A DNA stretch of 64,000 nt, taken from a virus. Lineage: Duplodnaviria; Caudoviricetes. Shown piece by piece: positions 5,653-23,101 of this stretch. Positions within the stretch are counted from its first letter, which is position 1. Every line of letters starts with the position of its first letter. Position numbers and translations under genes: made by a program. Location: positions 1 to 64,000 of IMG/VR virus record IMGVR_UViG_3300033463_000023. One strand, given 5' to 3'. The notes below the pieces were generated by a model that was not told the origin of the DNA, ran no database searches, and saw nothing but the letters and a program-made list of their open reading frames with translations.

Positions 5653-6004
5653 ACAATGGGAGGACAAGACTATGTATGACGAGACAAAGGCAAAGCTCTA
5701 TGAGCGCGAAGTGGAGTTCGTAGAGACGGAGAGTAGGTTTATCAACGGCGGTCTGGGCCACACGAAAGAGGTGGCGCAGGCTATGGCGCAAGACCACCGC
5801 TATCTGGTGCAGGAACGCTTCAAGCTGATGCTGGAGTACTGGAAAGAATTAGCCAAGAACTATCGCAAGGGGCGGTATGACCCGCGCAACGAGTGGGCCT
5901 GCAGGTGTGCCGGCGTGGCTATCGACGCGCTCATCGAGAGCGGTGACCTGTATATCCCCTGGGACGAGCGTGAGGAATTTGGTATGAACACTAAAGAGGC
6001 ATGA
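5645..6004 (+). CDS. Hypothetical protein
   Basis: 119-aa ORF in operon-like packing. Confidence 0.75.
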   Translation: MRKQWEDKTMYDETKAKLYEREVEFVETESRFINGGLGHTKEVAQAMAQDHRYLVQERFKLMLEYWKELAKNYRKGRYDPRNEWACRCAGVAIDALIESGDLYIPWDEREEFGMNTKEA

Positions 6005-6459: not shown

Positions 6460-7551
6460 ATGGCAAAGGAAGCGATTGTAAAGCAGGTGGACGTGATGGG
6501 CCTGATGGGCGCATTGCGCACCAAGGGCGAGGCGAAGCTGAGCGACTTCGCAAAGCCTATCGAGAGCGACAACAACAACAGTATTAACGATCCAAACAGT
6601 ACAATTATGGCAAATGAGACAAAGGCTGCCGACCTTATCGGCAAGGTGATTATCGTGGGCGAGAACCTCGCCACTATCGAGATTAAGAGAGTGCAGGACA
6701 ACGGCATGCTGGCCTGCGAGTTCAAGCGCGGCGACGCTGCGCCTATATCCATGCCCGTGACCATCCCGAACCTGGAGGCGCAGGTGAAGCGCGGCACGTG
6801 GAAGTTCAAGGACGAGTGCCTCGCCCCCGACTCCTCTCCTACCGGCGAGGTGGAGGTGGCCGAGGTGGTGGATATCACGCCGAAGAAGCCGACTATTAAG
6901 CCTAAGGCTGAGGACAAGCCTAAGGCTGAGAAGCCGAAGAACACGGGCAAGACCAAGATCGTGGTGGCCGGTGTGCCCAAGCCAGGCGAGGTCGGGGACA
7001 AGCCTAAGGCTGCGAGTGAGCGAGAGGAGAGCGGAGCTGGCTCCGGCTCTGCCGAGTGTGAGCAGGCTCGCCCGCAGGGCAAGGGTAAGCTGACCTATTC
7101 GACCTATACGTCGAAGAAGGGCAAGACGTGCGCCAGGATATCGGGCTTCGGCGAGGACGACCCCGCCTATGTGAACGCCACGGAGATCCACGGCAGCGCG
7201 TCGTGGGAGAAGACGAAGAACGGCCAGCGCACCAACTACATCGTGTTCGGCCACCGCTATACGGAGGCTGCCAGGCAGGTGTGCGAGGCGCTCAATGCCG
7301 GCAAGAGCTTCGAGGGCTGCAAGGCTATCGTCGACGGAGCCACGGCCGAGCGCCAGCAGAAGCGCCAGCAGAAGCGCCTCACCCCCAGCCCCTCTCCGAC
7401 TGGCGAGGGGAGCGAGGGCGCAAAGGGGTCAGGCACCGGTGCGTCCAAGACCTATACCCTCGACGAGGTGGCGGCGAAGCTGCGCGGCCTGCTGCCCGAG
7501 GGCGACAAGGCGACGGCCGAGGACATCAGGAAACTGCTGGAGGCGGCATGA
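6460..7551 (+). CDS. Hypothetical protein
   Basis: 363-aa ORF, ACGACT-ATG start, high third-position GC. Confidence 0.85.
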   Translation: MAKEAIVKQVDVMGLMGALRTKGEAKLSDFAKPIESDNNNSINDPNSTIMANETKAADLIGKVIIVGENLATIEIKRVQDNGMLACEFKRGDAAPISMPVTIPNLEAQVKRGTWKFKDECLAPDSSPTGEVEVAEVVDITPKKPTIKPKAEDKPKAEKPKNTGKTKIVVAGVPKPGEVGDKPKAASEREESGAGSGSAECEQARPQGKGKLTYSTYTSKKGKTCARISGFGEDDPAYVNATEIHGSASWEKTKNGQRTNYIVFGHRYTEAARQVCEALNAGKSFEGCKAIVDGATAERQQKRQQKRLTPSPSPTGEGSEGAKGSGTGASKTYTLDEVAAKLRGLLPEGDKATAEDIRKLLEAA

Positions 7552-7629
7552 CGCTCTGCGAGCTAATGAATAGTGAATAACGAATAGTGAATAATTAACG
7601 CTGCGCTATCGGCATGACGGGCAACGACT

Positions 7630-8679
7630 ATGGCAACGAAGAAAGAAAAGTCAAAGGGACTGCGGATGAACGACAACCAGAAGCAGAAGTATGCGGAGCT
7701 GTTCATCAATGCGCTCGACTCTATGGCGGGCGCGAAGTACAAGAAGCCGTGGGTGACGCCGCACGGAGGCCACCCCGCCAACTACAGGCACAAGAAGCCG
7801 TACAGGGGCGTGAACGACCTGTTCTTGAGCCTGCTGTGCGCCATGCGCGGCTGGAAGACGTGCTGCTTCCTGACCTTCGACCAGGTGACGGAGATGGGCC
7901 TGCAGCTGAACATGGTCTACGGCAAGGACGGCATGCCCGAGCTGAACGACAAGGGGCTGCCCGTGTTCGAGCGCCCGTTCCCCGTGGTGAAGAAGCTCAT
8001 GACGGTGTGGCGCGACGGCGTAAAGCTCTCGCCCAAGGAGTACGACGAGCTCTCCGACGAGGAGAAGGAGGACTGCCACAAGGCGTTCTACAACAGGTTC
8101 TACAACGAGTTCAACCTCGAGCAGACGAACTTCGCCGAGGTCTATCCCGAGCAGTGGAAGCAGCTGACGGCCGTGCCGGAGCACGACTATGCCGAGGGCG
8201 TCAGGGACGGGGTGCTCGAGCGTATCATCATGGAGGACGGCGGCTGGCGCTGCCGCATCGAGTTCGGAGGCCAGGAGGCGTTCTACTCGCCCGGCCAGGA
8301 CTATATCCGCCTGCCGGAGCGGTCGCAGTTCCTCGGCGACGAGCAGTTCTACGGCACCGCCCTGCACGAGATGGCGCACTCCACGAAGAAGGACGTGAAG
8401 CGCGACATCGGCGGCGTGTTCGGCTCGGAGGAGTATGCCCGCGAGGAGTTCGTGGCCGAGCTGACGTCGGCCTGCGTGTGCTCGATGCTCGGCATCGGCA
8501 AGCTGCTCGACGAGAACCACGTGGCCTATGTCGCCTCGTGGCGCAAGGCGCTCAAGGACGACACCGACTTCATCCCCAGCGTCATCGACTACGTTCAGAC
8601 GGCCACGAACTACATCCTGCGCCACTACGACAAGGTGCAGAAGTCTATGGAGGCCGGCGAGCTGGCTATCGCAGCGTAA
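7630..8679 (+). CDS. ardC: ArdC-like antirestriction / ssDNA-binding protein with zincin-like C-domain
   Basis: N-terminal KPW...YRGVN...FLTFDQ; C-terminal AFYSPGQDYI, ALHEMAHST (HExxH), YAREEFVAEL, YVASW. Confidence 0.85.
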   Translation: MATKKEKSKGLRMNDNQKQKYAELFINALDSMAGAKYKKPWVTPHGGHPANYRHKKPYRGVNDLFLSLLCAMRGWKTCCFLTFDQVTEMGLQLNMVYGKDGMPELNDKGLPVFERPFPVVKKLMTVWRDGVKLSPKEYDELSDEEKEDCHKAFYNRFYNEFNLEQTNFAEVYPEQWKQLTAVPEHDYAEGVRDGVLERIIMEDGGWRCRIEFGGQEAFYSPGQDYIRLPERSQFLGDEQFYGTALHEMAHSTKKDVKRDIGGVFGSEEYAREEFVAELTSACVCSMLGIGKLLDENHVAYVASWRKALKDDTDFIPSVIDYVQTATNYILRHYDKVQKSMEAGELAIAA

Positions 8680-8685
8680 AAGTAC

Positions 8686-8893
8686 GGCAGCGCACACTGC
8701 CTAACCGCGGCTGCGGGGCGGCGCGTGTTCAGGACATCCTGCCCTGACCGGCAGTCTTCGGCCTGCCTCCATCTCCGGAGGCCCGGCCGCCGACGGCTTA
8801 CCCTGCCCTCCGGAGATGGAGGCGGGCGTCGTCTGCCGGCAGCAGGATGCTGTCATCGAACCGATAGAGAATTGTGCCGGCCGCCCGGCAACC
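8686..8893 (+). ncRNA. RT-associated structured RNA unit 1
   Basis: GGCAG-cgcaca-CTGCC; P2 GGGCGGC/GCCGCCC; TTCA 8728; hairpin 8735-8849; CATCG-N6-TAGAG-N3-TGTGCCG. Confidence 0.8.
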
Positions 8894-8908
8894 CTAAAAC
8901 GAAAAGGA

Positions 8909-9061
8909 ATGATTACAAGATTCAAGCTCTGGGACGGTCGCAAGGTGACCGTGGAGCAGACGATGACGGGCTATACCGCCCAGACAGAGGGAGAGAACGA
9001 GAAGAGGCGCATCACCAGTACGGACTATATGCGCTTAGTGTTGAACGCTCAAATATGTTAG
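8909..9061 (+). CDS. Small protein (50 aa) immediately upstream of RT
   Basis: ATG 8909 after an A-rich leader; stop 3 nt before the RT start. Confidence 0.65.
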   Translation: MITRFKLWDGRKVTVEQTMTGYTAQTEGENEKRRITSTDYMRLVLNAQIC

Positions 9062-9064
9062 GCT

Positions 9065-10678
9065 ATGGACGACAAGATTCTGAAGATGTTCTTTGAGAAA
9101 GAGCGGTGGGAGTATGCCATCGAGAAAGGGTGCGTCAAGGACGTGCCGAAGAACTGGCTCTACCAGCTCTGCAAGCCCGAGGTACGGGTGGCCATGTACC
9201 GGGCCATCGCCAACGGCACGTACGAGATCGCCCCGCCGCACACGGCGAGGATCCCCAAGGAGACGCCTGGCGAGTGGCGCACGGTGTACGTCAACGAGCC
9301 GGCAGACAGGGTGCTGCTGAGCATCGCGAATGATCTACTGTTCGAGCTGATGCCGGACTATGTGCATCCGAGGTGCAAGAGCTACCTGAAAGGGGTGGGT
9401 TGCGGTCGTATCGTCAGGGAGGCGAGCGCCGCTATCACGGCCACAGGGGCCACGGGGAAGATCGGCTGGAAGAGCGACCTGTCGAAGTACTTCGACTCCG
9501 TGCCCGTCGAGTATATCGACGCGGCGTTCGACGGCGTGGAGCAGCGGCACGGGGAGTCGAAGCTGGTTGACGTGCTGCGGAAGTACTACCACAGCGACCT
9601 GTATATCGACGGCCAGACGAAGCGGGTGGAGAGCAAGTACCAGTCGCTGAAGCAGGGCTGCAGCGTGGCCTCGTGGCTGGCCGACGTGATACTCTACCAT
9701 ATCGACGAGAGGCTCTCGCAGCTCGACGGCTACTACGTGCGCTACTCCGACGACATGCTCTTCATCGGGCCGGATGCCGGAAAGGCCATGGCCGTCCTCA
9801 CGGACGAGCTGGCCAGGATGGGCATGTGCCTGAACCCCAAGAAAGTCGAGTGGCTCGACCGGGACCACTGGTTCAAGTTCCTCGGCTACTCCATCAAGGG
9901 CGAGAGCATATCGCTGAGCTCTACCCGCATCAAGACGTTCCAGAAGGAGATCGAGGCGAGGACGGTAAAGCGCAAGGGAGACAGGGGCAAGGAGTTTTTT
10001 GCCAATGCCGTCAGCAGGGTCAACCGCTATCTCTACCGCGGCGACGGGCAGGGCCACTCGTGGGCCACGCAGGTGCTCTCCGTGGTGAACGTCCGCCAGG
10101 ACGTCGACACGCTGAACTGCTTCGTCATGGACTGCCTGCGCGCCGTCCATACGGGCAAGGCGAAGCTCGGCGGGCTGGGCTACGACCGGCAGGGCAGGGT
10201 AGGGTGCATCGTCCGTGGCAGGGGCAGGAATGTCAGCGCCAACCGCCGCAAGACGGGCGACACCATCGACGGCTATCTCACACTGGGATGCATGCAGAAC
10301 GCCATGCGGACCTCCCGTGCTGCCTACGACACGCTGGTGAGGAGCCTCGCCCCCGGCCCCTCTCCGACCGGCGATGGGAGCGGCGGCGGAGAGGTGCTGC
10401 CGGTGTGCAGCGAGACGATAGAGGAGCTCTACGGCGTCTACAAGCACTCGATCCCGAGCGAGAGGACCATGCGCCGCACGGCGCGCTTCAAGGCGCTGCC
10501 GGAGAGCGAGCTCTCCGACGACGACATGCTCTACGGCGTGCCCCGCGAGGAAGCGGAGCGGCAGCTGGAGAAAGCACTCAAGGGCTTCTCTATCCCTGCA
10601 GGCGCAGGGTCGTGGTTCTGGCAGAGCAAGGCCGACCCCGACCTCGTGGTGCTGAAATCATGGACCAGCGCAGCGTGA
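9065..10678 (+). CDS. Reverse transcriptase (not group II intron or DGR; unknown-group/retron-like) with C-terminal extension
   Basis: RT motifs IPK...R.V...DR, KSDLSKYFDSV, LKQGCSVASWLA, YVRYSDD, LNPKK, FKFLGY. Confidence 0.93.
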   Translation: MDDKILKMFFEKERWEYAIEKGCVKDVPKNWLYQLCKPEVRVAMYRAIANGTYEIAPPHTARIPKETPGEWRTVYVNEPADRVLLSIANDLLFELMPDYVHPRCKSYLKGVGCGRIVREASAAITATGATGKIGWKSDLSKYFDSVPVEYIDAAFDGVEQRHGESKLVDVLRKYYHSDLYIDGQTKRVESKYQSLKQGCSVASWLADVILYHIDERLSQLDGYYVRYSDDMLFIGPDAGKAMAVLTDELARMGMCLNPKKVEWLDRDHWFKFLGYSIKGESISLSSTRIKTFQKEIEARTVKRKGDRGKEFFANAVSRVNRYLYRGDGQGHSWATQVLSVVNVRQDVDTLNCFVMDCLRAVHTGKAKLGGLGYDRQGRVGCIVRGRGRNVSANRRKTGDTIDGYLTLGCMQNAMRTSRAAYDTLVRSLAPGPSPTGDGSGGGEVLPVCSETIEELYGVYKHSIPSERTMRRTARFKALPESELSDDDMLYGVPREEAERQLEKALKGFSIPAGAGSWFWQSKADPDLVVLKSWTSAA

Positions 10679-10690
10679 CGGCACGCTGCC

Positions 10691-10884
10691 ACCCCGCACA
10701 GGGTCCGTCCGCGCAGGGCGGCACACTTCAGCAGAAGGCGTCTCTAACCAGAACCGGTAGCTTCAGTACCTCCGGGCATACCAGCGGATTCGCTGGTGTG
10801 CCAGGCGGTACTGAAGCACGTTCTGGCGAACGCCTTCAGTCATCGGACTCCTACAGTCCATGTGCCGGGCCGCAGGGCGCGGAC
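10691..10884 (+). ncRNA. RT-associated structured RNA unit 2
   Basis: ACCC-cgcaca-GGGT; P1 GTCCGCGC/GCGCGGAC; P2 GCGGC/GCCGC; TTCA 10727; hairpin 10734-10837; CATCG-N6-TACAG-N4-TGTGCCG. Confidence 0.85.
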
Positions 10885-10888
10885 ATCT

Positions 10889-11069
10889 GGCGGCGCATAC
10901 CGCCTCCGGCCGTCAGGGCGGAGCGATTCAGCGAAGCTGTACACGACGTCTTCTTGCGATCACCTGCAGACGGTCTGCCGACGGTCGTGCAGGTGATCTC
11001 GAGAAGACCCTTCTACAGCTTCAGTATCGGACGACTAAAGGACTATGCCGGTCCGCAAGGACGGCCGGA
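10889..11069 (+). ncRNA. RT-associated structured RNA unit 3
   Basis: GGCGG-cgcata-CCGCC; P1 TCCGGCCGTC/GACGGCCGGA; P2 GCGGA/TCCGC; TTCA 10927; hairpin 10933-11022; TATCG-N6-TAAAG-N3-TATGCCG. Confidence 0.85.
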
Positions 11070-11137
11070 TTTAATTGACCATTGACCATTGACCATTGGA
11101 CACCGGAAATTATTAACCCATTAAACATTTTAAAGTT

Positions 11138-12253
11138 ATGGCTACAACGAAGAAGAACGAGAGCAAGAACGCTTCCAGGAAGCAGGTTATCAACAACGCT
11201 AACGGCGAGACCAAGGTCGTGTGCCCCGTGTGCGGCACGGAGTTCGACGTGCTCGCCGAGCACGAGCACAAGGAGAGGAACGTGACGGTGCTGGGCGTGG
11301 ACTCCGGCGCCGGCACCATCGTGCTGCCCGTGAGCAGGCGCGGCGAGGCCCTCGAGGCCGCCGGCGTCGACACCTCGAAGTACTTCAGCATCAAGCTCCC
11401 CACGGGCGGCGAGCAGATGATGAAGATGGGCGACGACGGCAAGGCCGTGCCCGTGACGCAGGACGACCCTATCATCAAGGCCATCCTCGGCGCCGGCACC
11501 GTGTCCAACCGCAAGCTGTTCCGCCGGTGGGTGATGTCGCAGGTGTTCCACGGCCTGCTCTACAGGTGCCGCTACTACGGCGACGGCTTCACGGGCTGGC
11601 TGAAGAGCCACGGCTATCCCTACCAGTGGGAGATGCTCGTCGAAGAGCTGCGCGTTCAGGCCACGCTCTACGGCCGTGACATGGAGAACTTCACCGCCCG
11701 CAACCGCTGGTTCGACAAGGCCCTGGCCGTCGCCATGGCCGGCGACTACATCGGGCAGCTCCGCAAGGACGCCAACTCCCGCCCGCGCCACAGGTGCAAG
11801 GGCGTGCCCTACGTCACCGTGGAGCACAAGCACTACTTCGTCGCCGACATCGAGAAGAAGCTCATCGCCCCGCTGTGGGCCTACGTCCGCGCCATCGAGA
11901 AGGCCGGGACCCCGCAGGCACTCTACGGGGCCGTGAAGGCGTTCTGGAGGGCGTGCCCCGTGAAGTCATGGAGCTACGCCCAGTGCCCGGAGTGGAAGGA
12001 CGCCTACAAGGGCATGGGAGCCTATGCCGTGATGCAGAACCTACTGCGCTTCCACGGCTGCACGTTCCCCAGGGACAACGACTTCTACAGCCGCAGCCGC
12101 CGGGGTCTCGACGCCCTGGAGGAAGCCGCCAGCTGCTACGGCGACGGCGAGGGCTGGCGCCTGTTCGGCCTGATGAAGCAGATGCTGTCGGAGAACCACG
12201 TCGACATCGAGAGGAAGATGCAGCAGTGGAGCGAGGCCAAGAGGCTCCGCTGA
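11138..12253 (+). CDS. Hypothetical protein embedded in the RT RNA array (N-terminal CxxC)
   Basis: 371-aa ORF with VCPVCGTEF; flanked by RNA units on both sides. Confidence 0.88.
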   Translation: MATTKKNESKNASRKQVINNANGETKVVCPVCGTEFDVLAEHEHKERNVTVLGVDSGAGTIVLPVSRRGEALEAAGVDTSKYFSIKLPTGGEQMMKMGDDGKAVPVTQDDPIIKAILGAGTVSNRKLFRRWVMSQVFHGLLYRCRYYGDGFTGWLKSHGYPYQWEMLVEELRVQATLYGRDMENFTARNRWFDKALAVAMAGDYIGQLRKDANSRPRHRCKGVPYVTVEHKHYFVADIEKKLIAPLWAYVRAIEKAGTPQALYGAVKAFWRACPVKSWSYAQCPEWKDAYKGMGAYAVMQNLLRFHGCTFPRDNDFYSRSRRGLDALEEAASCYGDGEGWRLFGLMKQMLSENHVDIERKMQQWSEAKRLR

Positions 12254-12264
12254 CCGGACGGCGG

Positions 12265-12427
12265 GGCCGCGCATACGGCCGCCCCGTGCAGGGCGACACC
12301 CGTTTCATGCAGATCAGCCTGAACGGAGATGGCCCCGTGAGACTATGCTACACGGGGCCGTTCTCCTGCGACTGATCTACGCCATCGGAGGACTACAGCG
12401 ATATGCCGCTGTCGCAAGGCACGGGGC
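12265..12427 (+). ncRNA. RT-associated structured RNA unit 4
   Basis: GGCCG-cgcata-CGGCC; P1 GCCCCGTGC/GCACGGGGC; P2 GCGACA/TGTCGC; TTCA 12304; hairpin 12311-12378; CATCG-N6-TACAG-N3-TATGCCG. Confidence 0.85.
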
Positions 12428-12464
12428 TTTCCAGTGCATAATCAATAATGCATAAGGCATAACA

Positions 12465-12644
12465 GGCGGCGTGCGCCGCCGCGTGCTGCCAGACGCGCGA
12501 CGATTCAATGCTTCAGGATTGCAAAGCTCGAAACTCGACTCAGCCGACAGGGTACCCCCTGTGGGCTGAAGTCTCGGTTCGAGCTCTTCATCCTGATTCA
12601 TATCGGGACCGTAAAGACCACGCACCATGCGCGGAGGGCAGCGC
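12465..12644 (+). ncRNA. RT-associated structured RNA unit 5
   Basis: GGCGG-cgtgcg-CCGCC; P1 GTGCTGCC/GGCAGCGC; P2 CGCGCG/TGCGCG; TTCA 12504; hairpin 12513-12596; TATCG-N6-TAAAG-N4-CGCACC. Confidence 0.8.
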
Positions 12645-12745
12645 CATTGACCATTGAACTTTTGGAGCAGCGAGAACCATCGTGCTCGCACGTTTGGCCG
12701 AGTCGTGACAAAAGTCATGGAACGAAGTGACATAACATTGAACAT

Positions 12746-12924
12746 TCCCGGCACAGGGACGGGAGGCGAGGACGGCACGCGTTCAGGCGACCGGCTCCGG
12801 AAAGCCGACGCTCAGTCCGGGTACCCGCGTGTATCAACGCGGGTACCGCCGATGAGCGTCGCCGGATGTCCGGTCGCTGTCATCAGGACGATAGAGACCA
12901 TGTGCCGGGCCGTCACGGCCTCCC
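12746..12924 (+). ncRNA. RT-associated structured RNA unit 6
   Basis: TCCC-ggcaca-GGGA; P1 GGGAGGC/GCCTCCC; P2 GACGGC/GCCGTC; TTCA 12782; hairpin 12787-12877; CATCA-N6-TAGAG-N4-TGTGCCG. Confidence 0.85.
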
Positions 12925-12925
12925 C

Positions 12926-13109
12926 TATGCAGCACAGCATACTACTACAGGCCTGCGGGACGGACACGATTCAAACCTACAGTGAGCACATGGCGGCCGC
13001 CTGGAGGCGCCGTCGTCACTGCCGAAACGACGGCGCCTCCTGGCGACCGTCACTTCTCACTGTATCTTATCGGCGACGTAAAGCCACGTGCCGGGTCCGT
13101 GAGCAGACC
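12926..13109 (+). ncRNA. RT-associated structured RNA unit 7
   Basis: TATGC-agcaca-GCATA; P1 GGCCTGC/GCAGACC; P2 ACGGAC/GTCCGT; TTCA 12970; hairpin 12978-13064; TATCG-N6-TAAAG-N3-CGTGCCG. Confidence 0.8.
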
Positions 13110-13116
13110 ATCCGTC

Positions 13117-13276
13117 GGGAGCGTACCCTATGCTCCGCGAGGCACCCCGAGCTTCAAATTTCCATCTCACAGTTTTCCCTGGATTCCCACTGGGACACTC
13201 CCAGTCTTCATCCAGGGAAGTTGCGATGGAACTTATCGACGCACTAAAGAACTACGCCGGGGGATGCAGGGCGGAG
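13117..13276 (+). ncRNA. RT-associated structured RNA unit 8
   Basis: GGG-agcgta-CCC; P1 CTCCGC/GCGGAG; P2 GCACCCC/GGGG(A)TGC; TTCA 13153; hairpin 13160-13231; TATCG-N6-TAAAG-N3-TACGCCG. Confidence 0.8.
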
Positions 13277-13309
13277 AACAGGCTAATTGAGAATTAAGAA
13301 TTGAGAGAT

Positions 13310-13708: not shown

Positions 13709-13911
13709 CCCCTGCCCAGCAGCGGCCTTGACCTATGCTCTGATGCGACTGCGGGGACTATCTGTTGCCGTGCCACGGCAACACACTCAACAGACTGACA
13801 TAATTGTAAGTTTTTGAAAGTTGAACGTTTGCGGGCTGACCGTCGTGAGGACAGGGCAGCCCTTTGAATGCATAATTCATAATGCATAATGCATAATAAA
13901 ATATAACGCTT

Positions 13912-15443: not shown

Positions 15444-15485
15444 TACGTTGAACATTGAACATTGAACATTAAAACGATTACGGCT

Positions 15486-15917: not shown

Positions 15918-16361
15918 ATGAGACAGTACAGGGTATTCATCGACATTACGGTGACGAAGACTCTCAGCATCAGTGCTGAGAGTGAGGAACAGGCCAGGGA
16001 GCAGGCGCTGAAGCAGTGCCGCGAGCGGCCGGACTACTACGCCCGCGACAACGACGGCGTGATAGACGTGAGCGTGTCGGAGTGCGAAGAGGACGGGGAG
16101 CCGGACGCCCGCACGGTGATCGACAAGGCGATTGACTACGTGAAGGAGAATCTGGAGGCCGACGAGCTGGCGGAGATACGGGCACAGGTAGACCGCTCGT
16201 ACCGCTACCACATGATGCCCAGCGACTGCGTGACTGGCACCGACAGGGTGATAGAGCTGCTGGGCGAGTACGGCAGGGACTACGAGGACGTTGGCGAGGA
16301 CAACGCCGACTGCTGGTGGGAGCCGCACATCGACCTCGACGATATTCTATTGAGACTATAG
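15918..16361 (+). CDS. Hypothetical acidic protein
   Basis: 147-aa ORF. Confidence 0.8.
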   Translation: MRQYRVFIDITVTKTLSISAESEEQAREQALKQCRERPDYYARDNDGVIDVSVSECEEDGEPDARTVIDKAIDYVKENLEADELAEIRAQVDRSYRYHMMPSDCVTGTDRVIELLGEYGRDYEDVGEDNADCWWEPHIDLDDILLRL

Positions 16362-16403
16362 ACTACAGACTATTTTAAAACAACGGATTAAAACATTACG
16401 ACT

Positions 16404-17740: not shown

Positions 17741-20700
17741 ATGGCAACGAAACTACAGAGACTGCGCGACAACATCGCGGCAATAGAGTGTGCCCTGAAG
17801 GGCGAGAACAACAAGGAGGCGCTGAGGAAGTACAGCGGCTTCGGAGGGATGAACTTCATCCTGAACCCCGTGCTCGACAAGAGCAGGTGGAGCAAGGGCG
17901 ACATGGCCTACTACGAGGACACGGCAAGGCTGGTGCATCTGCTGGCGGAGCACTCCCGCACCATGGAGGAGGCGTCGCGCTGGATGACGAGCCTGAAGCA
18001 GAGCGTGCTGACGGCGTTCTATACGCCGCGGGAGATTCCCGGGGCCATATTCAAGAGCATCTTCGGAAACAGGAAGGAGTACCATGCCAAGGGCTTCCTT
18101 CCCGGGACGATGCTCGACCCCGCTGCCGGCATGGGCGTGTTCGGCACGATGTGCAAGTATGTCGACACGGCCTACACGGGCAGCATCAGCGTGACCTACT
18201 TCGAGAAGGACATCCTGACGGCCACCATGCTGAAGGCCCTGCGCGGCGACGGGGGGAGCTTCGTCTATTGCGACGGCTTCGAGAACTTCCCAGGCGACGA
18301 GCTGGGCACCTACGACCTCGTGTCCACCAACGTCCCCTTCGGCGACATCGCCGTGTTCGACCCCGCCTATACGAACGGCGACAGCCAGGTGAGACGCGAC
18401 GCGGCGAAGATGATCCACCGCTACTTCGTGCTCAAGGGCCTGGATGCGCTGCGCGACGGCGGCCTGCTGGCGTACATCATCACCTCGAACTATATCAACA
18501 ACGACCAGGAGCAGCTGCAGGAGGCGCTGAAGCAGAGCCGCCTGATAGGGGCCTACCGCCTGCCGAACAACCTCTTCAAGGAGAACGGCACCGAGGTCGG
18601 CACCGACCTGCTGGTGCTGCAGAAGGACGTGAACAAGAAGGACCTCTCCGACGAGGAGTGCATGCTGCTGACGCCGATGGAGGTGGAGGGCTGCCCGAGC
18701 AGCCTGTACTTCCAGGTCTATCCGCTGCATGAGATCGCCACGAGCCGGACGGCCGGCACGGACGCCTACGGCAAGCCCGGACTGGTGTACTACCACGAGG
18801 ACGGCGTGAAGGGCGTCGCAGACAGCCTGGAGACGATGCTGAGAATCGGGATGGAGAAGTTCGATGTCGCCATCTGGGAGAAGGGGCGTACCAAGGATGA
18901 GAGGCCGGCCGCCAAGGCAAAGTCCGGGAAGAAGCCGACGAAGCAGGAGGCCGACCTGCAGGTGCTGCACGGATGCTATCTGATGCTGTACGAGAACGAG
19001 ATGAAGAGCCATACCGTTGACGAGGAGAACCGCCGTAACCTGAACGAGCTCTATCACGAGTATATCGGCATCTACGGCCATCTGAACGACAAGAAGACCC
19101 GTGATATCGCCAAGCGCCTGAATATGGTGGATGTGCTGGCGCTGGAGGTCAAGGGTGACGACGGGAAGTGGCAGAAGGCCGACATCTTCTATAAGCCCGT
19201 GGCCTTCTCCACCGAGGAGCGAACGGGACCTATGACGGCGCAGGAGGCGCTGGCAACGAGTCTGAACGACACCGGCATCGTGAACATCGGCCCGATGATC
19301 CAAATGACGGGACTGGACGAGAGCGAGCTTGTGGAGCAGCTGAGAGGAGAGATATTCTATAACCCTCTGGTGAAAGAAGAATCGACAGGCATTGCCCATC
19401 GTTGGGAAATCAAGGCGAAGTTTGTCTGCGGCAACGTGATAGAGAAACTGGCACAGATAGAGCCTATCTATGAAAAGGAGAAGGAAAAGGGTGAGAACCC
19501 ATGCCTGGTGGCCGACCTTCATACGTCCGTGGAAGCCCTGCGCGCCGCCATCCCGACGCCCATCCCCTTCGAGGACCTCGACTTCAACCTCGGCGAGCGG
19601 TGGGTGGACCCGCAGGTCTATGCCGACTTCGCCTCGGAGTTCTTCTCCATGCCCGAGGACCCCGAGTGCTCGTGGCGCGGCGGTGCCGCCAAGGTGACGG
19701 TGAAGCTCGCCGTCGACCAGTACGTCGCGGCGGTCAGCGGCCCGAGCAACGAGCGCATCCGCACGCAGTACAGCGTGACCTCCGAGACCGGCAACAGGCT
19801 CGACGGCATCGACCTGCTGCAGCACGCCCTCAACGACACCACGCCGAAGCTGATGCGCTACAAGCGCAACGAGCGCGGCGCCTACGTCATGACAAGCAGC
19901 GACGAGCTGGCCAAGGAGGAGGACCCCGAGGCCGTGCAGGCCGCCAAGACGAAGATCGACGAGATACGCCAGGGCTATGCCGACTGGCTGCAGCGCCGTC
20001 CGAAGGAGTTCCGCGACAAGCTGGCCGCCAAGTACAACCGCCTGTTCAACTGCACGGTGAAGCCCGTCTATGACGGCTCGCACCTCCGTCTCGACGACGT
20101 GGACTGGAAGGGCGTCAAGGAGAAGTTCGGCTTCGACCGTCCCTACAAGTCCCAGCTCGACGCCATCTGGATGATCATCTGCCTGGGCGGCGGCGTCTGC
20201 GACCACGAGGTGGGCAGCGGCAAGACGCTGATCATGTGCGCCGCGGCCCACATCATGAAGCGCCTCGGCATGGTGCACAAGCCCATGATCATCGGCATGA
20301 AGGCCAACGTCTCGGCCATCGCCGACCTCTACCGCACGATGTACCCGCAGGACAAGGTGCTCTTCGCCACGGAGAGTGACTATTCCGCATCGAACCGCGT
20401 GGACTTCTTCAACCGCATGAAGACCGGCGACTGGAACGCTATCATCATGTCCCACGACCAGTTCGGCAAGATCCCGCAGAGCGACGCCATCCAGCAGGAG
20501 CAGCTCTACGACGCCCTCCGCCAGTGCGACGACGCCCTGGAGGCCGTCTCCGCCGCCGACGGCTACGAGATATCCTCCAAGATGCGCCGCGGCGTGGAGA
20601 AGCGCAAGGCCAACCTGAACGCGAAGCTCCTGAACCTGCAGAACACCATCCGCAACCGCAAGGACAGGGTGACGGACTTCGAGCAGATGGGCATCGACTT

Positions 20701-23101
20701 CCTCCTGTGCGACGAGTACCAGGTGTTCAAGAACGACGCCATCGTCACCCGCCACGACCGCGTGGCCGGGCTGGGCTGCACCGAGGGAAGCCAGCGCGCC
20801 TTCAACTTCCGCATGGCCGTCTATACGATCCAGAAGCGCCGCGACCGCGACCTCGGCGCGGTGTTCTTCTCCGGCACCGTCGTGACGAACTCCCTGACGG
20901 AGCTCTACGTGCTGTTCCGCTACCTGCGTCCCCGTGCGCTGAAGCGCCTGGGCATCACCTGCTTCGACGCCTGGGCCGCGATCTTCACGAAGAAGTCGGC
21001 GGAGTACGAGTTCTCGGTGACGAACACCATCGTCCTGAAGGAGCGCTTCCGCTACTTCATCAAGGTGCCGGAGCTGGCGATGTTCTACAACGAGGTCACC
21101 GACTTCAAGACCGCCGAGGACGTCGGCATCGACCGCCCGAGAAAGCACCCGATGCTGCTGAACATCAAGCCCACCCCCGACCAGGAGGTGTACATCAAGA
21201 CCCTGATGAAGTTCGCCCAGACCGGCGACTTCTCGCTCATCGGCATCGACAACCCGACGGACGCCCAGCAGAAGGCGAAGATGCTCTATGCCACCGACCT
21301 GGCCCGCAAGATGTCGCTCGACATGCGTCTCATCGACCCGCAGTACGGCGACCACCCCAACTCCAAGGCCAGCCGCTGCGCGGAGATCGTCAAGCGCTAC
21401 TACGACGCCTACGACGAGATGAAGGGCACGCAGCTCATCTTCTCTGATTTGAGCACCTGGCAGGGCAAGAGCGTCTGGTCGGTCTACGGCGCCATCCGCG
21501 ACAAGCTCGTCGACGACTACGGCATCCCCGCCTCGGAGATACGCTTCATCCAGGAGGCGAAGTCCGACAGGGCCAAGCAGGAGATCATCCGCCTGACGAA
21601 CGATGGAAAGGTCCGCGTGCTGTTCGGCTCTACCACGATGCTCGGCACCGGCGTCAACGCCCAGAAGCGCGTCGTCGCCGTGCACCACCTCGACACGCCG
21701 TGGCGTCCAGCCGACCTCGAGCAGCGCGACGGCCGTGCCGTCCGCAAGGGAAACGAGGTGGCCTCGGAGTATGCCGGCAACCAGGTCGACGTGATCATCT
21801 ACGCCGTGGAGCGGAGCCTGGACTCCTACAAGTTCAACCTCCTTCACCTGAAGCAGGTCTTCATCAACCAGCTCAAGCGCGGCCAGCTGAACGTCCGTAC
21901 CCTCGACGAGGGGGCCATGGACGAGAAGACCGGCACGAGCTTCGCCGACTACGTGAGCATCCTCTCGGGCAACACCGACATCAAGGACCGCTTCGTGCTG
22001 CAGAAGCGCATCGCCGCCCTCGAGGGAGAGCGGAAGAACTTCTACCGCGACCGCCACGCACAGGAGGCGAAGCGCGACGGCCTGCTGCACGACAACGTGC
22101 GCCACGGGCAGAACATCGCCGAGGCAGGGAAGGACTGGCAGCGGTTCACCGAGAGCCGCCGCGTGGCGGACGGCGTGACGGTGAACGACCTCCAGCTCGA
22201 CAACTTCGCCACCGCCGAGCCGCAGGGCAGCGACGCATGGACGAGGGATATGGCCCGGGAGCTGTGGCGCATCGACAACGACACCGTGCTCACGCCGGGA
22301 GAGTACCGCACGATAGGCTCCGTATGCGGGTTCCCGATAGTGATGCGCACCGAGACGGCCGGCTACAGCCAGGCCGAGGGCGTGCAGCTCTACCAGAACC
22401 GCTTCATGGTGCAGGGATCGAGGATCCTGCACACCGTGAACAACGGCAAGCTGCCGCACAGCTCCTTCGCCGACACGGTGAGCTACTTCGTGGACTGCCT
22501 CGAGCTGATCCCGCAGCGCATCGCCGCCTGGGAGGAAGCCGTGAAGGCCAACCGCAGCGGCATCCGCCAGCTCGAGGAGATTATGAAGGCCGACTGGGGC
22601 AAGGACGGCATGCTCGCCGAGATGAAGCAGCAGCTGGCCCGTCTCGACGAGAAGATCGCCAGGACCGCCGGCAAGACCGAGGACGAGGTGAAGGCGCAGG
22701 CCGGGCAGGAGAAGCCCGCCGAGCTTCCCTATAAGTTCGAGCGCGACCGCGGCGACTACAGCGTGTCGTTCAAGCGCTCGCTGCTCTCGCTCGTCAGCAT
22801 CGGCGAGATGCGGACGATGGCCGACGACATCAGCTACCAGAGCCGCGTCCGCGACTGGAGCGGCTGCTACGGACGGCAGGACGTGAAGCCCGACCGCGAG
22901 ATAGAGGTGGTGTTCCACAACGCCAACTATCCCGACGCCTGGATCCTGAAGGCGATGGAGCTGCAGAGGCACCGCGAGAAGGACGCGTCGTGGCTCGCCG
23001 CCAAGGCCTCCGAGGACACCAGGGGCGGCACCGTCACCCAGGAGAACGAGACCGTCTTCGCCGCCCGCCTCTATCTCTCGGAGATCAGGAAGGCGGCGTG
23101 A
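17741..23101 (+). CDS. DarB-like N6-adenine methyltransferase + SF2/SNF2 helicase fusion
   Basis: MTase motifs LDPAAGMGVF and TNVPFG; helicase motifs HEVGSGKT, LCDEYQVFKN, SGTVVTNS, LGTGVN, QRDGRAVRKGN; 1786 aa. Confidence 0.88.
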   Translation: MATKLQRLRDNIAAIECALKGENNKEALRKYSGFGGMNFILNPVLDKSRWSKGDMAYYEDTARLVHLLAEHSRTMEEASRWMTSLKQSVLTAFYTPREIPGAIFKSIFGNRKEYHAKGFLPGTMLDPAAGMGVFGTMCKYVDTAYTGSISVTYFEKDILTATMLKALRGDGGSFVYCDGFENFPGDELGTYDLVSTNVPFGDIAVFDPAYTNGDSQVRRDAAKMIHRYFVLKGLDALRDGGLLAYIITSNYINNDQEQLQEALKQSRLIGAYRLPNNLFKENGTEVGTDLLVLQKDVNKKDLSDEECMLLTPMEVEGCPSSLYFQVYPLHEIATSRTAGTDAYGKPGLVYYHEDGVKGVADSLETMLRIGMEKFDVAIWEKGRTKDERPAAKAKSGKKPTKQEADLQVLHGCYLMLYENEMKSHTVDEENRRNLNELYHEYIGIYGHLNDKKTRDIAKRLNMVDVLALEVKGDDGKWQKADIFYKPVAFSTEERTGPMTAQEALATSLNDTGIVNIGPMIQMTGLDESELVEQLRGEIFYNPLVKEESTGIAHRWEIKAKFVCGNVIEKLAQIEPIYEKEKEKGENPCLVADLHTSVEALRAAIPTPIPFEDLDFNLGERWVDPQVYADFASEFFSMPEDPECSWRGGAAKVTVKLAVDQYVAAVSGPSNERIRTQYSVTSETGNRLDGIDLLQHALNDTTPKLMRYKRNERGAYVMTSSDELAKEEDPEAVQAAKTKIDEIRQGYADWLQRRPKEFRDKLAAKYNRLFNCTVKPVYDGSHLRLDDVDWKGVKEKFGFDRPYKSQLDAIWMIICLGGGVCDHEVGSGKTLIMCAAAHIMKRLGMVHKPMIIGMKANVSAIADLYRTMYPQDKVLFATESDYSASNRVDFFNRMKTGDWNAIIMSHDQFGKIPQSDAIQQEQLYDALRQCDDALEAVSAADGYEISSKMRRGVEKRKANLNAKLLNLQNTIRNRKDRVTDFEQMGIDFLLCDEYQVFKNDAIVTRHDRVAGLGCTEGSQRAFNFRMAVYTIQKRRDRDLGAVFFSGTVVTNSLTELYVLFRYLRPRALKRLGITCFDAWAAIFTKKSAEYEFSVTNTIVLKERFRYFIKVPELAMFYNEVTDFKTAEDVGIDRPRKHPMLLNIKPTPDQEVYIKTLMKFAQTGDFSLIGIDNPTDAQQKAKMLYATDLARKMSLDMRLIDPQYGDHPNSKASRCAEIVKRYYDAYDEMKGTQLIFSDLSTWQGKSVWSVYGAIRDKLVDDYGIPASEIRFIQEAKSDRAKQEIIRLTNDGKVRVLFGSTTMLGTGVNAQKRVVAVHHLDTPWRPADLEQRDGRAVRKGNEVASEYAGNQVDVIIYAVERSLDSYKFNLLHLKQVFINQLKRGQLNVRTLDEGAMDEKTGTSFADYVSILSGNTDIKDRFVLQKRIAALEGERKNFYRDRHAQEAKRDGLLHDNVRHGQNIAEAGKDWQRFTESRRVADGVTVNDLQLDNFATAEPQGSDAWTRDMARELWRIDNDTVLTPGEYRTIGSVCGFPIVMRTETAGYSQAEGVQLYQNRFMVQGSRILHTVNNGKLPHSSFADTVSYFVDCLELIPQRIAAWEEAVKANRSGIRQLEEIMKADWGKDGMLAEMKQQLARLDEKIARTAGKTEDEVKAQAGQEKPAELPYKFERDRGDYSVSFKRSLLSLVSIGEMRTMADDISYQSRVRDWSGCYGRQDVKPDREIEVVFHNANYPDAWILKAMELQRHREKDASWLAAKASEDTRGGTVTQENETVFAARLYLSEIRKAA

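Follow-up and report, generated by a model that had tools for sequence, protein, structure and literature searches.

A covarying loop-to-tail pseudoknot in the probable template RNAs of a phage-borne UG27 reverse transcriptase system

Eight non-coding units sharing a loop-to-tail pseudoknot lie on the + strand between positions 8680 and 13290 of the window analyzed here, the 64,000-nt stretch that forms positions 1 to 64,000 of IMG/VR virus record IMGVR_UViG_3300033463_000023 (Caudoviricetes), a 144,188 bp phage rated complete by CheckV. The units occupy three intergenic stretches, one unit upstream of a reverse transcriptase (RT) gene, two between that gene and the next, and five beyond the latter, and they are very probably the template RNAs, arranged as an array of noncoding RNA (ncRNA) units, of a phage-borne UG27 (class 2 UG/Abi) RT system. 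In every unit the loop of a short 5′ hairpin is complementary to a segment near the 3′ end, and permutation tests in the window together with covariation in related loci support this pairing as a genuine covarying tertiary contact. A preprint of 24 September 2026 already describes arrays of ~150-nt UG27 ncRNA units with a basal hairpin and a pseudoknot (bioRxiv 10.64898/2026.09.22.753630), so the finding is a rediscovery: the pseudoknot is known at the family level, and the window locus is a new, slightly variant example.

Loop-to-tail pairing in the eight units

Each unit (U1 to U8) folds into a short 5′ hairpin with a 6-nt loop (P1), a long-range closing stem (P2), and a long variable hairpin (P3) of 76-123 nt that is unrelated in sequence to the other seven. 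TTCA stands at the 5′ base of the long hairpin in 8/8 units, and the motif AUCNNNNNNNUANAG lies 3′ of the central hairpin, again in 8/8. The pattern ATCN7TAVAG, found in all eight units, has 9 matches in the whole window against 2.8 expected, and 8 of these fall inside the array. The units, all on the + strand, are as follows.

8686-8893, + strand, unit 1, upstream of the RT gene: P1 8686-8701; loop 8691-8696 CGCACA; TTCA 8728-8731; variable hairpin 8732-8854; ATC 8855; TAGAG 8865-8869; pseudoknot 3′ strand 8873-8877 TGTGC
10691-10886, + strand, unit 2: P1 10691-10704; loop 10695-10700 CGCACA; TTCA 10727-10730; hairpin 10731-10841; ATC 10842; TACAG 10852-10856; pseudoknot 3′ strand 10861-10865 TGTGC
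10889-11069, + strand, unit 3: P1 10889-10904; loop 10894-10899 CGCATA; TTCA 10927-10930; hairpin 10931-11025; ATC 11026; TAAAG 11036-11040; pseudoknot 3′ strand 11044-11048 TATGC
12265-12427, + strand, unit 4: P1 12265-12280; loop 12270-12275 CGCATA; TTCA 12304-12307; hairpin 12308-12383; ATC 12384; TACAG 12394-12398; pseudoknot 3′ strand 12402-12406 TATGC
12465-12644, + strand, unit 5: P1 12465-12480; loop 12470-12475 CGTGCG; TTCA 12504-12507; hairpin 12508-12601; ATC 12602; TAAAG 12612-12616; pseudoknot 3′ strand 12621-12625 CGCAC
12746-12924, + strand, unit 6: P1 12746-12759; loop 12750-12755 GGCACA; TTCA 12782-12785; hairpin 12786-12881; ATC 12882; TAGAG 12892-12896; pseudoknot 3′ strand 12901-12905 TGTGC
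12926-13110, + strand, unit 7: P1 12926-12941; loop 12931-12936 AGCACA; TTCA 12970-12973; hairpin 12974-13068; ATC 13069; TAAAG 13079-13083; pseudoknot 3′ strand 13087-13091 CGTGC, 4 bp only
13117-13276, + strand, unit 8: P1 13117-13128; loop 13120-13125 AGCGTA; TTCA 13153-13156; hairpin 13157-13234; ATC 13235; TAAAG 13245-13249; pseudoknot 3′ strand 13253-13257 TACGC

Positions 2-6 of the P1 loop are complementary in 8/8 units to 5 nt located 3-4 nt after TAVAG, with Watson-Crick pairs at 39/40 positions and four sequence versions: GCACA/TGTGC in U1, U2, and U6, GCATA/TATGC in U3 and U4, GUGCG/CGCAC in U5, and GCGUA/UACGC in U8; U7 pairs as GCAC/GUGC. The spacer between TAVAG and the partner is 3 nt in U1, U3, U4, U7, and U8 and 4 nt in U2, U5, and U6, and the 3′ strand begins 18-19 nt 3′ of AUC. 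Duplex energies of the pseudoknot range from -3.6 to -6.3 kcal/mol. When partners were permuted among the units, the observed pairing was the maximum, and the 48/40320 permutations that also scored 39 were all mere swaps between units of the same code. The combination of basal hairpin and pseudoknot that characterizes UG27 ncRNAs is present in 8/8 units. Between neighboring units, 10861-10865 can also pair with 10894-10899, and 12901-12905 with 12931-12936; the U6 3′ strand pairs better with the U7 loop than does U7's own.

An earlier first-pass annotation of this DNA had described the 6-nt loop of each 5′ hairpin as complementary to the segment after TAVAG, with the two changing together in every unit. 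The joint variation is borne out by the 39/40 Watson-Crick positions, the permutation maximum, and the relatives described below, and the coordinates confirm the pairing codes that it gave unit by unit, including the 4 bp of U7. The complementarity holds for loop positions 2-6, the first loop base being unpaired, and the description needs correction in small details: the spacer after TAVAG, which may be 3 or 4 nt, and the length of the P1 stem, which is 3-4 bp in U2, U6, and U8.

Covariation in related loci

Relatives were retrieved with the RT protein, yielding 8 genomic and 80 viral loci (88 in all), with 610 occurrences of the motif on the strand of the RT and 54 on the opposite one. These gave 449 distinct units. 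The reverse complement of the 5-mer at +3 after TANAG is found upstream in 305/449 of these, compared with 111 ± 8 when partners are permuted and 18-132 at slid offsets, and the upstream matches are located in 6-nt hairpin loops. In a separate test of 259 units, the stem alone served to select P1, in the stretch preceding UUYA; the search was narrowed to this stretch because a wider one often caught the previous unit, and taking the best 6-nt-loop hairpin anywhere upstream as P1 diluted the signal (2.13 vs 1.56 pairs). Perfect 5-bp pairing was detected in 169/259 related units and comprises ten distinct complementary versions, among them GCGCA/UGCGC, UUGCG/CGCAA, GAACA/UGUUC, and UUGUG/CACAA, with a mean over the 259 units of 3.87 pairs against 2.77 ± 0.06 for permuted partners and 0.7-1.8 in slid registers.

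A covariance model, R1, was built without the pseudoknot from 11 related units and used to align 73 units (alignment A4). The pseudoknot columns of A4 are 85.6% paired, with changes on both strands in 4/5 pairs. Their covariation score of 0.289 compares with 0.135 for shuffled alignments and was reached by 0/500 shuffles; slid versions of the pairing score 0-0.16. R1 is too near its seeds, and most of the unpaired or gapped pseudoknot cells come from ~18 of the 73 rows, which it truncated in P1. Whole-unit MAFFT alignments A1 and A2 misplace the 5′ hairpins and were excluded from the counts. Applied to the phage itself, R1 gave full-length matches on the + strand to U6 (E 0.006) and U4 (E 0.06); a search with R1, which is weak on GC-rich units, detected no further units in the other 80 kb of the genome. 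Together, the permutation and covariation tests uphold the tertiary contact proposed in the first-pass annotation, which links the 5′ hairpin with the internal loop beside the variable hairpin, on its 3′ strand, and the covarying pairing in window permutations, relatives, and A4 shows that the units act as folded single strands.

The UG27 locus and its genomic setting

Mestre et al. (2022, PMC9226505) defined UG27 as a class 2 UG/Abi RT that is carried by phages and has a putative ncRNA. According to the preprint, UG27 units carry UUYA and AUCN7UANAG around a variable central hairpin; in five systems the complementary DNA (cDNA) starts at AUC and ends after UUYA, giving 50-100-nt single-stranded DNA (ssDNA) hairpins; the RT, a small accessory protein (sORF), and a large accessory protein (bORF) are all required for cDNA; and the biological role is left open (bioRxiv 10.64898/2026.09.22.753630). 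The cDNA boundaries and the three-protein requirement used below are those of the preprint, and the motifs, folds, covariation, and protein families are those of the window. The first-pass annotation did not identify the units as a known UG27 system. An early interpretation of the units as ssDNA promoters, or as attC-like sites belonging to a conjugative element, was discarded once the record turned out to be a phage and the RT a UG27 enzyme. The two proteins encoded beside the units are these.

9065-10678, + strand: UG27 RT fused to the small accessory protein (sORF, cluster 346); PADLOC RT_UG27 and RTas346; active-site motif YSDD
11138-12253, + strand: large accessory protein bORF (cluster 337); PADLOC RTas337; homology to the bORF of related locus L062

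The open reading frame (ORF) at 9065-10678 encodes 537 aa, of which residues 1-428 match the PADLOC profile RT_UG27 over positions 1-420 of 420 (E 5.5e-205), with YSDD at 9743-9754. Retron RT profiles match it weakly (E 7e-08 and 2.4e-08), the matches to RT_Ec107-like (E 7e-08) and retron_St85_RT (33.6 bits, cut-off 235) being partial, and the RT thus falls outside the retron clade. The protein at 11138-12253 matches RTas337 at E 2.1e-105 and is 38% identical to the L062 bORF (E 1e-74). Both UG27 accessory proteins, of clusters 346 and 337, are therefore present beside the RT, the cluster 346 protein in fused form: residues 450-534 of the RT ORF match RTas346, and the free-standing sORF of L062 shares 48% identity with residues 452-533 (E 4e-22). 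This fusion is unusual. The RT measures ~421-422 aa in related loci L062, L027, and L001 (422 aa in L001), and the arrays of L062 and L027 are followed by a separate ORF of ~150 aa, which in L062 was confirmed to be sORF. Because the two are fused here, the window locus supports a physical RT-sORF complex. The fusion linker (junction ~10339-10415) reads LAPGPSPTGDGSGGGE; a 26-nt element within it, 10357-10382, recurs in frame at 7389-7414 in the unrelated ORF 6460-7551, and the 56 nt around the repeated element are 82% identical. A 50-aa ORF at 8909-9061, ending 4 nt before the RT start codon, was considered as a missing N-terminal part of sORF and rejected, being dissimilar to sORF; it has no Pfam or PADLOC match.

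The units span ~160-208 nt, a consequence of the 76-123 nt of P3, and so lie largely beyond the published range of ~135-167 nt; the rest of the architecture matches. The P3 regions are long hairpins with z of -4.9 to -10.3. Over the whole window, Rfam gave no family at gathering thresholds, and its matches at E ≤ 10 were at chance level. Folding bias was assessed for the eight window variable hairpins together with 251 related units, in 52 sequence clusters. P3 is more stable as the minus strand, the cDNA sense, in 43 vs 9 clusters with RNA parameters (p 1.6e-06) and in 44 vs 7 with DNA parameters (p 1e-07), and it has 108 G-U/G-T pairs in the cDNA sense against 51 in the RNA sense. GC skew shows an excess of C on the RNA strand of P3 (-0.09) and of G in the flanking genes (+0.08 to +0.10). 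For the P2 scaffold the + strand is more stable in 21 vs 11 cases (p 0.2). The bias of P3 toward folding in the cDNA sense fits folded cDNA as the selected product.

The UG27 cassette lies between an ArdC-like anti-restriction gene at 7630-8679 (Pfam ArdcN and MPTase-PolyVal; phrog_7245) and a gene at 17741-23101 for a DarB-like anti-restriction protein, a 1786-aa methylase/helicase (phrog_10089, E 9e-225). In L062 a DpnD/PcfM-like gene (5719-5946) stands directly before the RT. These neighbors suggest a role in host takeover or anti-defense. AT-rich tandem heptamers in 3-4.4 copies also occur in this GC-rich early region, nearly all directly upstream of a gene start, and their sequences are all different: TGAATAG, ATTGACC, TGCATAA, AATTGAG, AATGCAT, TTGAACA, and AGACTAT, at 7567-7593, 11074-11098, 12435-12462, 13285-13306, 13867-13897, 15448-15470, and 16353-16373, respectively. 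They may be leader or regulatory elements.

Proposed mechanism, alternatives, and known systems

Read along the + strand, a unit consists of P1 with its 6-nt loop, P2, UUCA, P3, AUC-N7-UAVAG, a spacer of 3-4 nt, and the 5 nt that pair with P1 loop positions 2-6. The fold is an H-type pseudoknot, in which the single unpaired loop base bridges the 5-bp helix, with zero bases between that helix and the P1 stem, so that the five paired loop bases run directly into the P1 3′ strand. In classical H-type geometry, a single nucleotide crosses the deep groove of a helix of 5-6 bp, and the two helices are stacked. The pseudoknot 3′ strand is continuous with the inner P2 3′ strand, which can be read directly in U3. 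Since the pseudoknot is continuous with strands of both P1 and P2, P1, the pseudoknot, and inner P2 could stack into one compact core, which would pin the single-stranded 18-19 nt of AUC-N7-UAVAG and spacer between itself and the base of P3. If the locus behaves like the five preprint systems, cDNA synthesis by the RT-sORF fusion with bORF would begin at AUC, proceed through P3, and end after UUCA, releasing predicted ssDNA hairpins of 83-130 nt with the form 5′-GAT...TGAA-3′; the predicted products fold as DNA hairpins (z -4.9 to -10.3).

The pseudoknot may shape an initiation platform or be recognized by the RT complex. A role near cDNA initiation is reasonable because its 3′ strand lies so close 3′ of AUC, the cDNA start mapped in the preprint, and putative recognition by the RT is plausible. 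Retron-like 2′-5′ priming finds no support, nor does the 2′-5′ branch that the first-pass annotation put forward for testing, and the interpretation given there is partly supported overall.

Several observations weigh against this explanation of the units. The pseudoknot has only 4 bp in U7, and the P1 stems of U2, U6, and U8 are short, just 3-4 bp; U5 has competing alternative hairpins; and in U2/U3 and U6/U7 the 3′ strand of the first unit could find just as good a partner in the loop of the second, 25-28 nt away. R1, derived from AT-richer relatives, detects only 2/8 window units at E ≤ 0.06. The window units, at ~160-208 nt, exceed the modes of 149/167 nt given in the preprint, which also reports ~135-nt UG27 units and a whole clade without the pseudoknot (bioRxiv 10.64898/2026.09.22.753630), so the contact is not universally required and is dispensable in some systems covered there.

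It is highly improbable that the two segments do not pair and only seem complementary, as conserved protein-binding motifs or as sequences co-inherited by unit duplication. GCACA/TGTGC is indeed dominant, with 78/259 related units and 3-4/8 window units, and one of the five A4 pairs is invariant, but ten complementary versions exist, four of the five pairs change on both sides, and the signal is lost with permuted partners and in slid registers. Equally improbable is an ordinary nested helix, in which the 3′ segment would pair with bases immediately ahead of UUYA and not with the hairpin loop. The minimum free energy fold of U2 and a reading of the sequences indicate that bases before TTCA can pair with TGTGCC in U2, U6, and U7, and in U1 through G-U, but the option is missing in U3, U4, U5, and U8; moreover, 0/259 related units have a perfectly complementary 5-mer 0-7 nt from UUYA, and mean pairing there equals the permuted control; this nested pairing was rejected.

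Granted that loop and tail do pair, the pseudoknot could serve mainly as an address in cis, by which each unit folds on itself within a multi-unit transcript and neighbors are kept from mispairing, with no role in RT recognition. This reading is compatible with the main explanation favored here, and we consider it possible, if rather unlikely. Nearly every unit in related arrays has its own 5-mer code, for example, 7-8 distinct codes per 8 units, and non-adjacent units of one locus share a code in 2/852 pairs, although these arrays represent only two or three independent lineages, which leaves the count heavily pseudo-replicated; the two array lineages in which nearly all units have a distinct code are those of L062 and L001. 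In the window there are only 5 codes for 8 units, and U2/U3 and U6/U7 are cross-compatible at 25-28 nt. Adjacent units share codes more often than in shuffled order (19 vs 4.0 ± 1.8). Retron-like self-priming, in which the pseudoknot and P2 would place a conserved 2′-OH, for instance that of the G of UAVAG, by AUC and yield a 2′-5′ branched RNA-DNA, appears improbable. The layout is retron-like, with P2 in the place of a1/a2, P1 in that of msr, and P3 in that of msd; UANAG is invariant 10-14 nt 3′ of the start site; and the preprint indicates that its protocol also recovered the multicopy single-stranded DNA (msDNA) of retron Ec86, so that protocol does not exclude a branch. Yet the RT is UG27 and matches retron profiles weakly, a branch is unreported for UG27, the need for two extra proteins in cDNA synthesis would equally fit other modes such as protein priming, and the position table of related units contains no conserved pairing of AUC with the N7/UANAG segment. 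A joint reading is also conceivable, though unlikely as a whole: a private pseudoknot code would enforce folding in cis and position a primer, either a 2′-OH of the UAVAG segment or a residue of an accessory protein, at AUC; the cargo hairpin would be selected for folding in the cDNA sense, not as RNA; and the phage, whose array is surrounded by anti-restriction genes, would deploy a set of folded ssDNAs as decoys against host defenses.

UG27 is a newly characterized phage RT system with a known cDNA output. As a natural variant, the window locus brings nothing new on the pseudoknot itself; what it adds is the RT-sORF fusion, long GC-rich units that widen the known length range, and the cDNA-sense folding of the hairpins. 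Both its position between ArdC-like and DarB-like anti-restriction genes and the preference of the hairpins for folding in the cDNA sense suggest folded ssDNA as the functional product, possibly in host takeover.

The window shares with the UG27 arrays described in the preprint a UG27 RT, sORF and bORF homologs, tandem units on the gene strand, a basal hairpin, a pseudoknot, UUYA, a variable hairpin, and AUCN7UANAG, as well as carriage by phage and extra units in neighboring intergenic regions. Judging from its text, the pseudoknot of the preprint is very likely the same pairing as the one found here. The window departs from the typical systems described there in its fused, 537-aa RT and sORF, in GC-rich units of ~160-208 nt against modes of 149 and 167, and in the 1 + 2 + 5 split of the array. 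Retron msr-msd RNA likewise has a closing inverted repeat, one or more short 5′ hairpins, and a long variable hairpin copied to ssDNA by a dedicated RT, but retron RTs form another clade, and UG27 has many units per RT, two required accessory proteins, and the loop-to-tail pseudoknot. DRT2 (UG2), like UG27, combines a class 2 UG/Abi RT with a structured, pseudoknot-containing ncRNA template; it relies on one ncRNA, whose rolling-circle copying yields long concatemeric cDNA, whereas UG27 makes short hairpin cDNAs from many units. In the template/pseudoknot domain of telomerase RNA, too, a pseudoknot adjoins a short single-stranded template start and the template has defined boundaries, although the proteins and RNAs are unrelated, and in UG27 the template is a whole hairpin, copied once.

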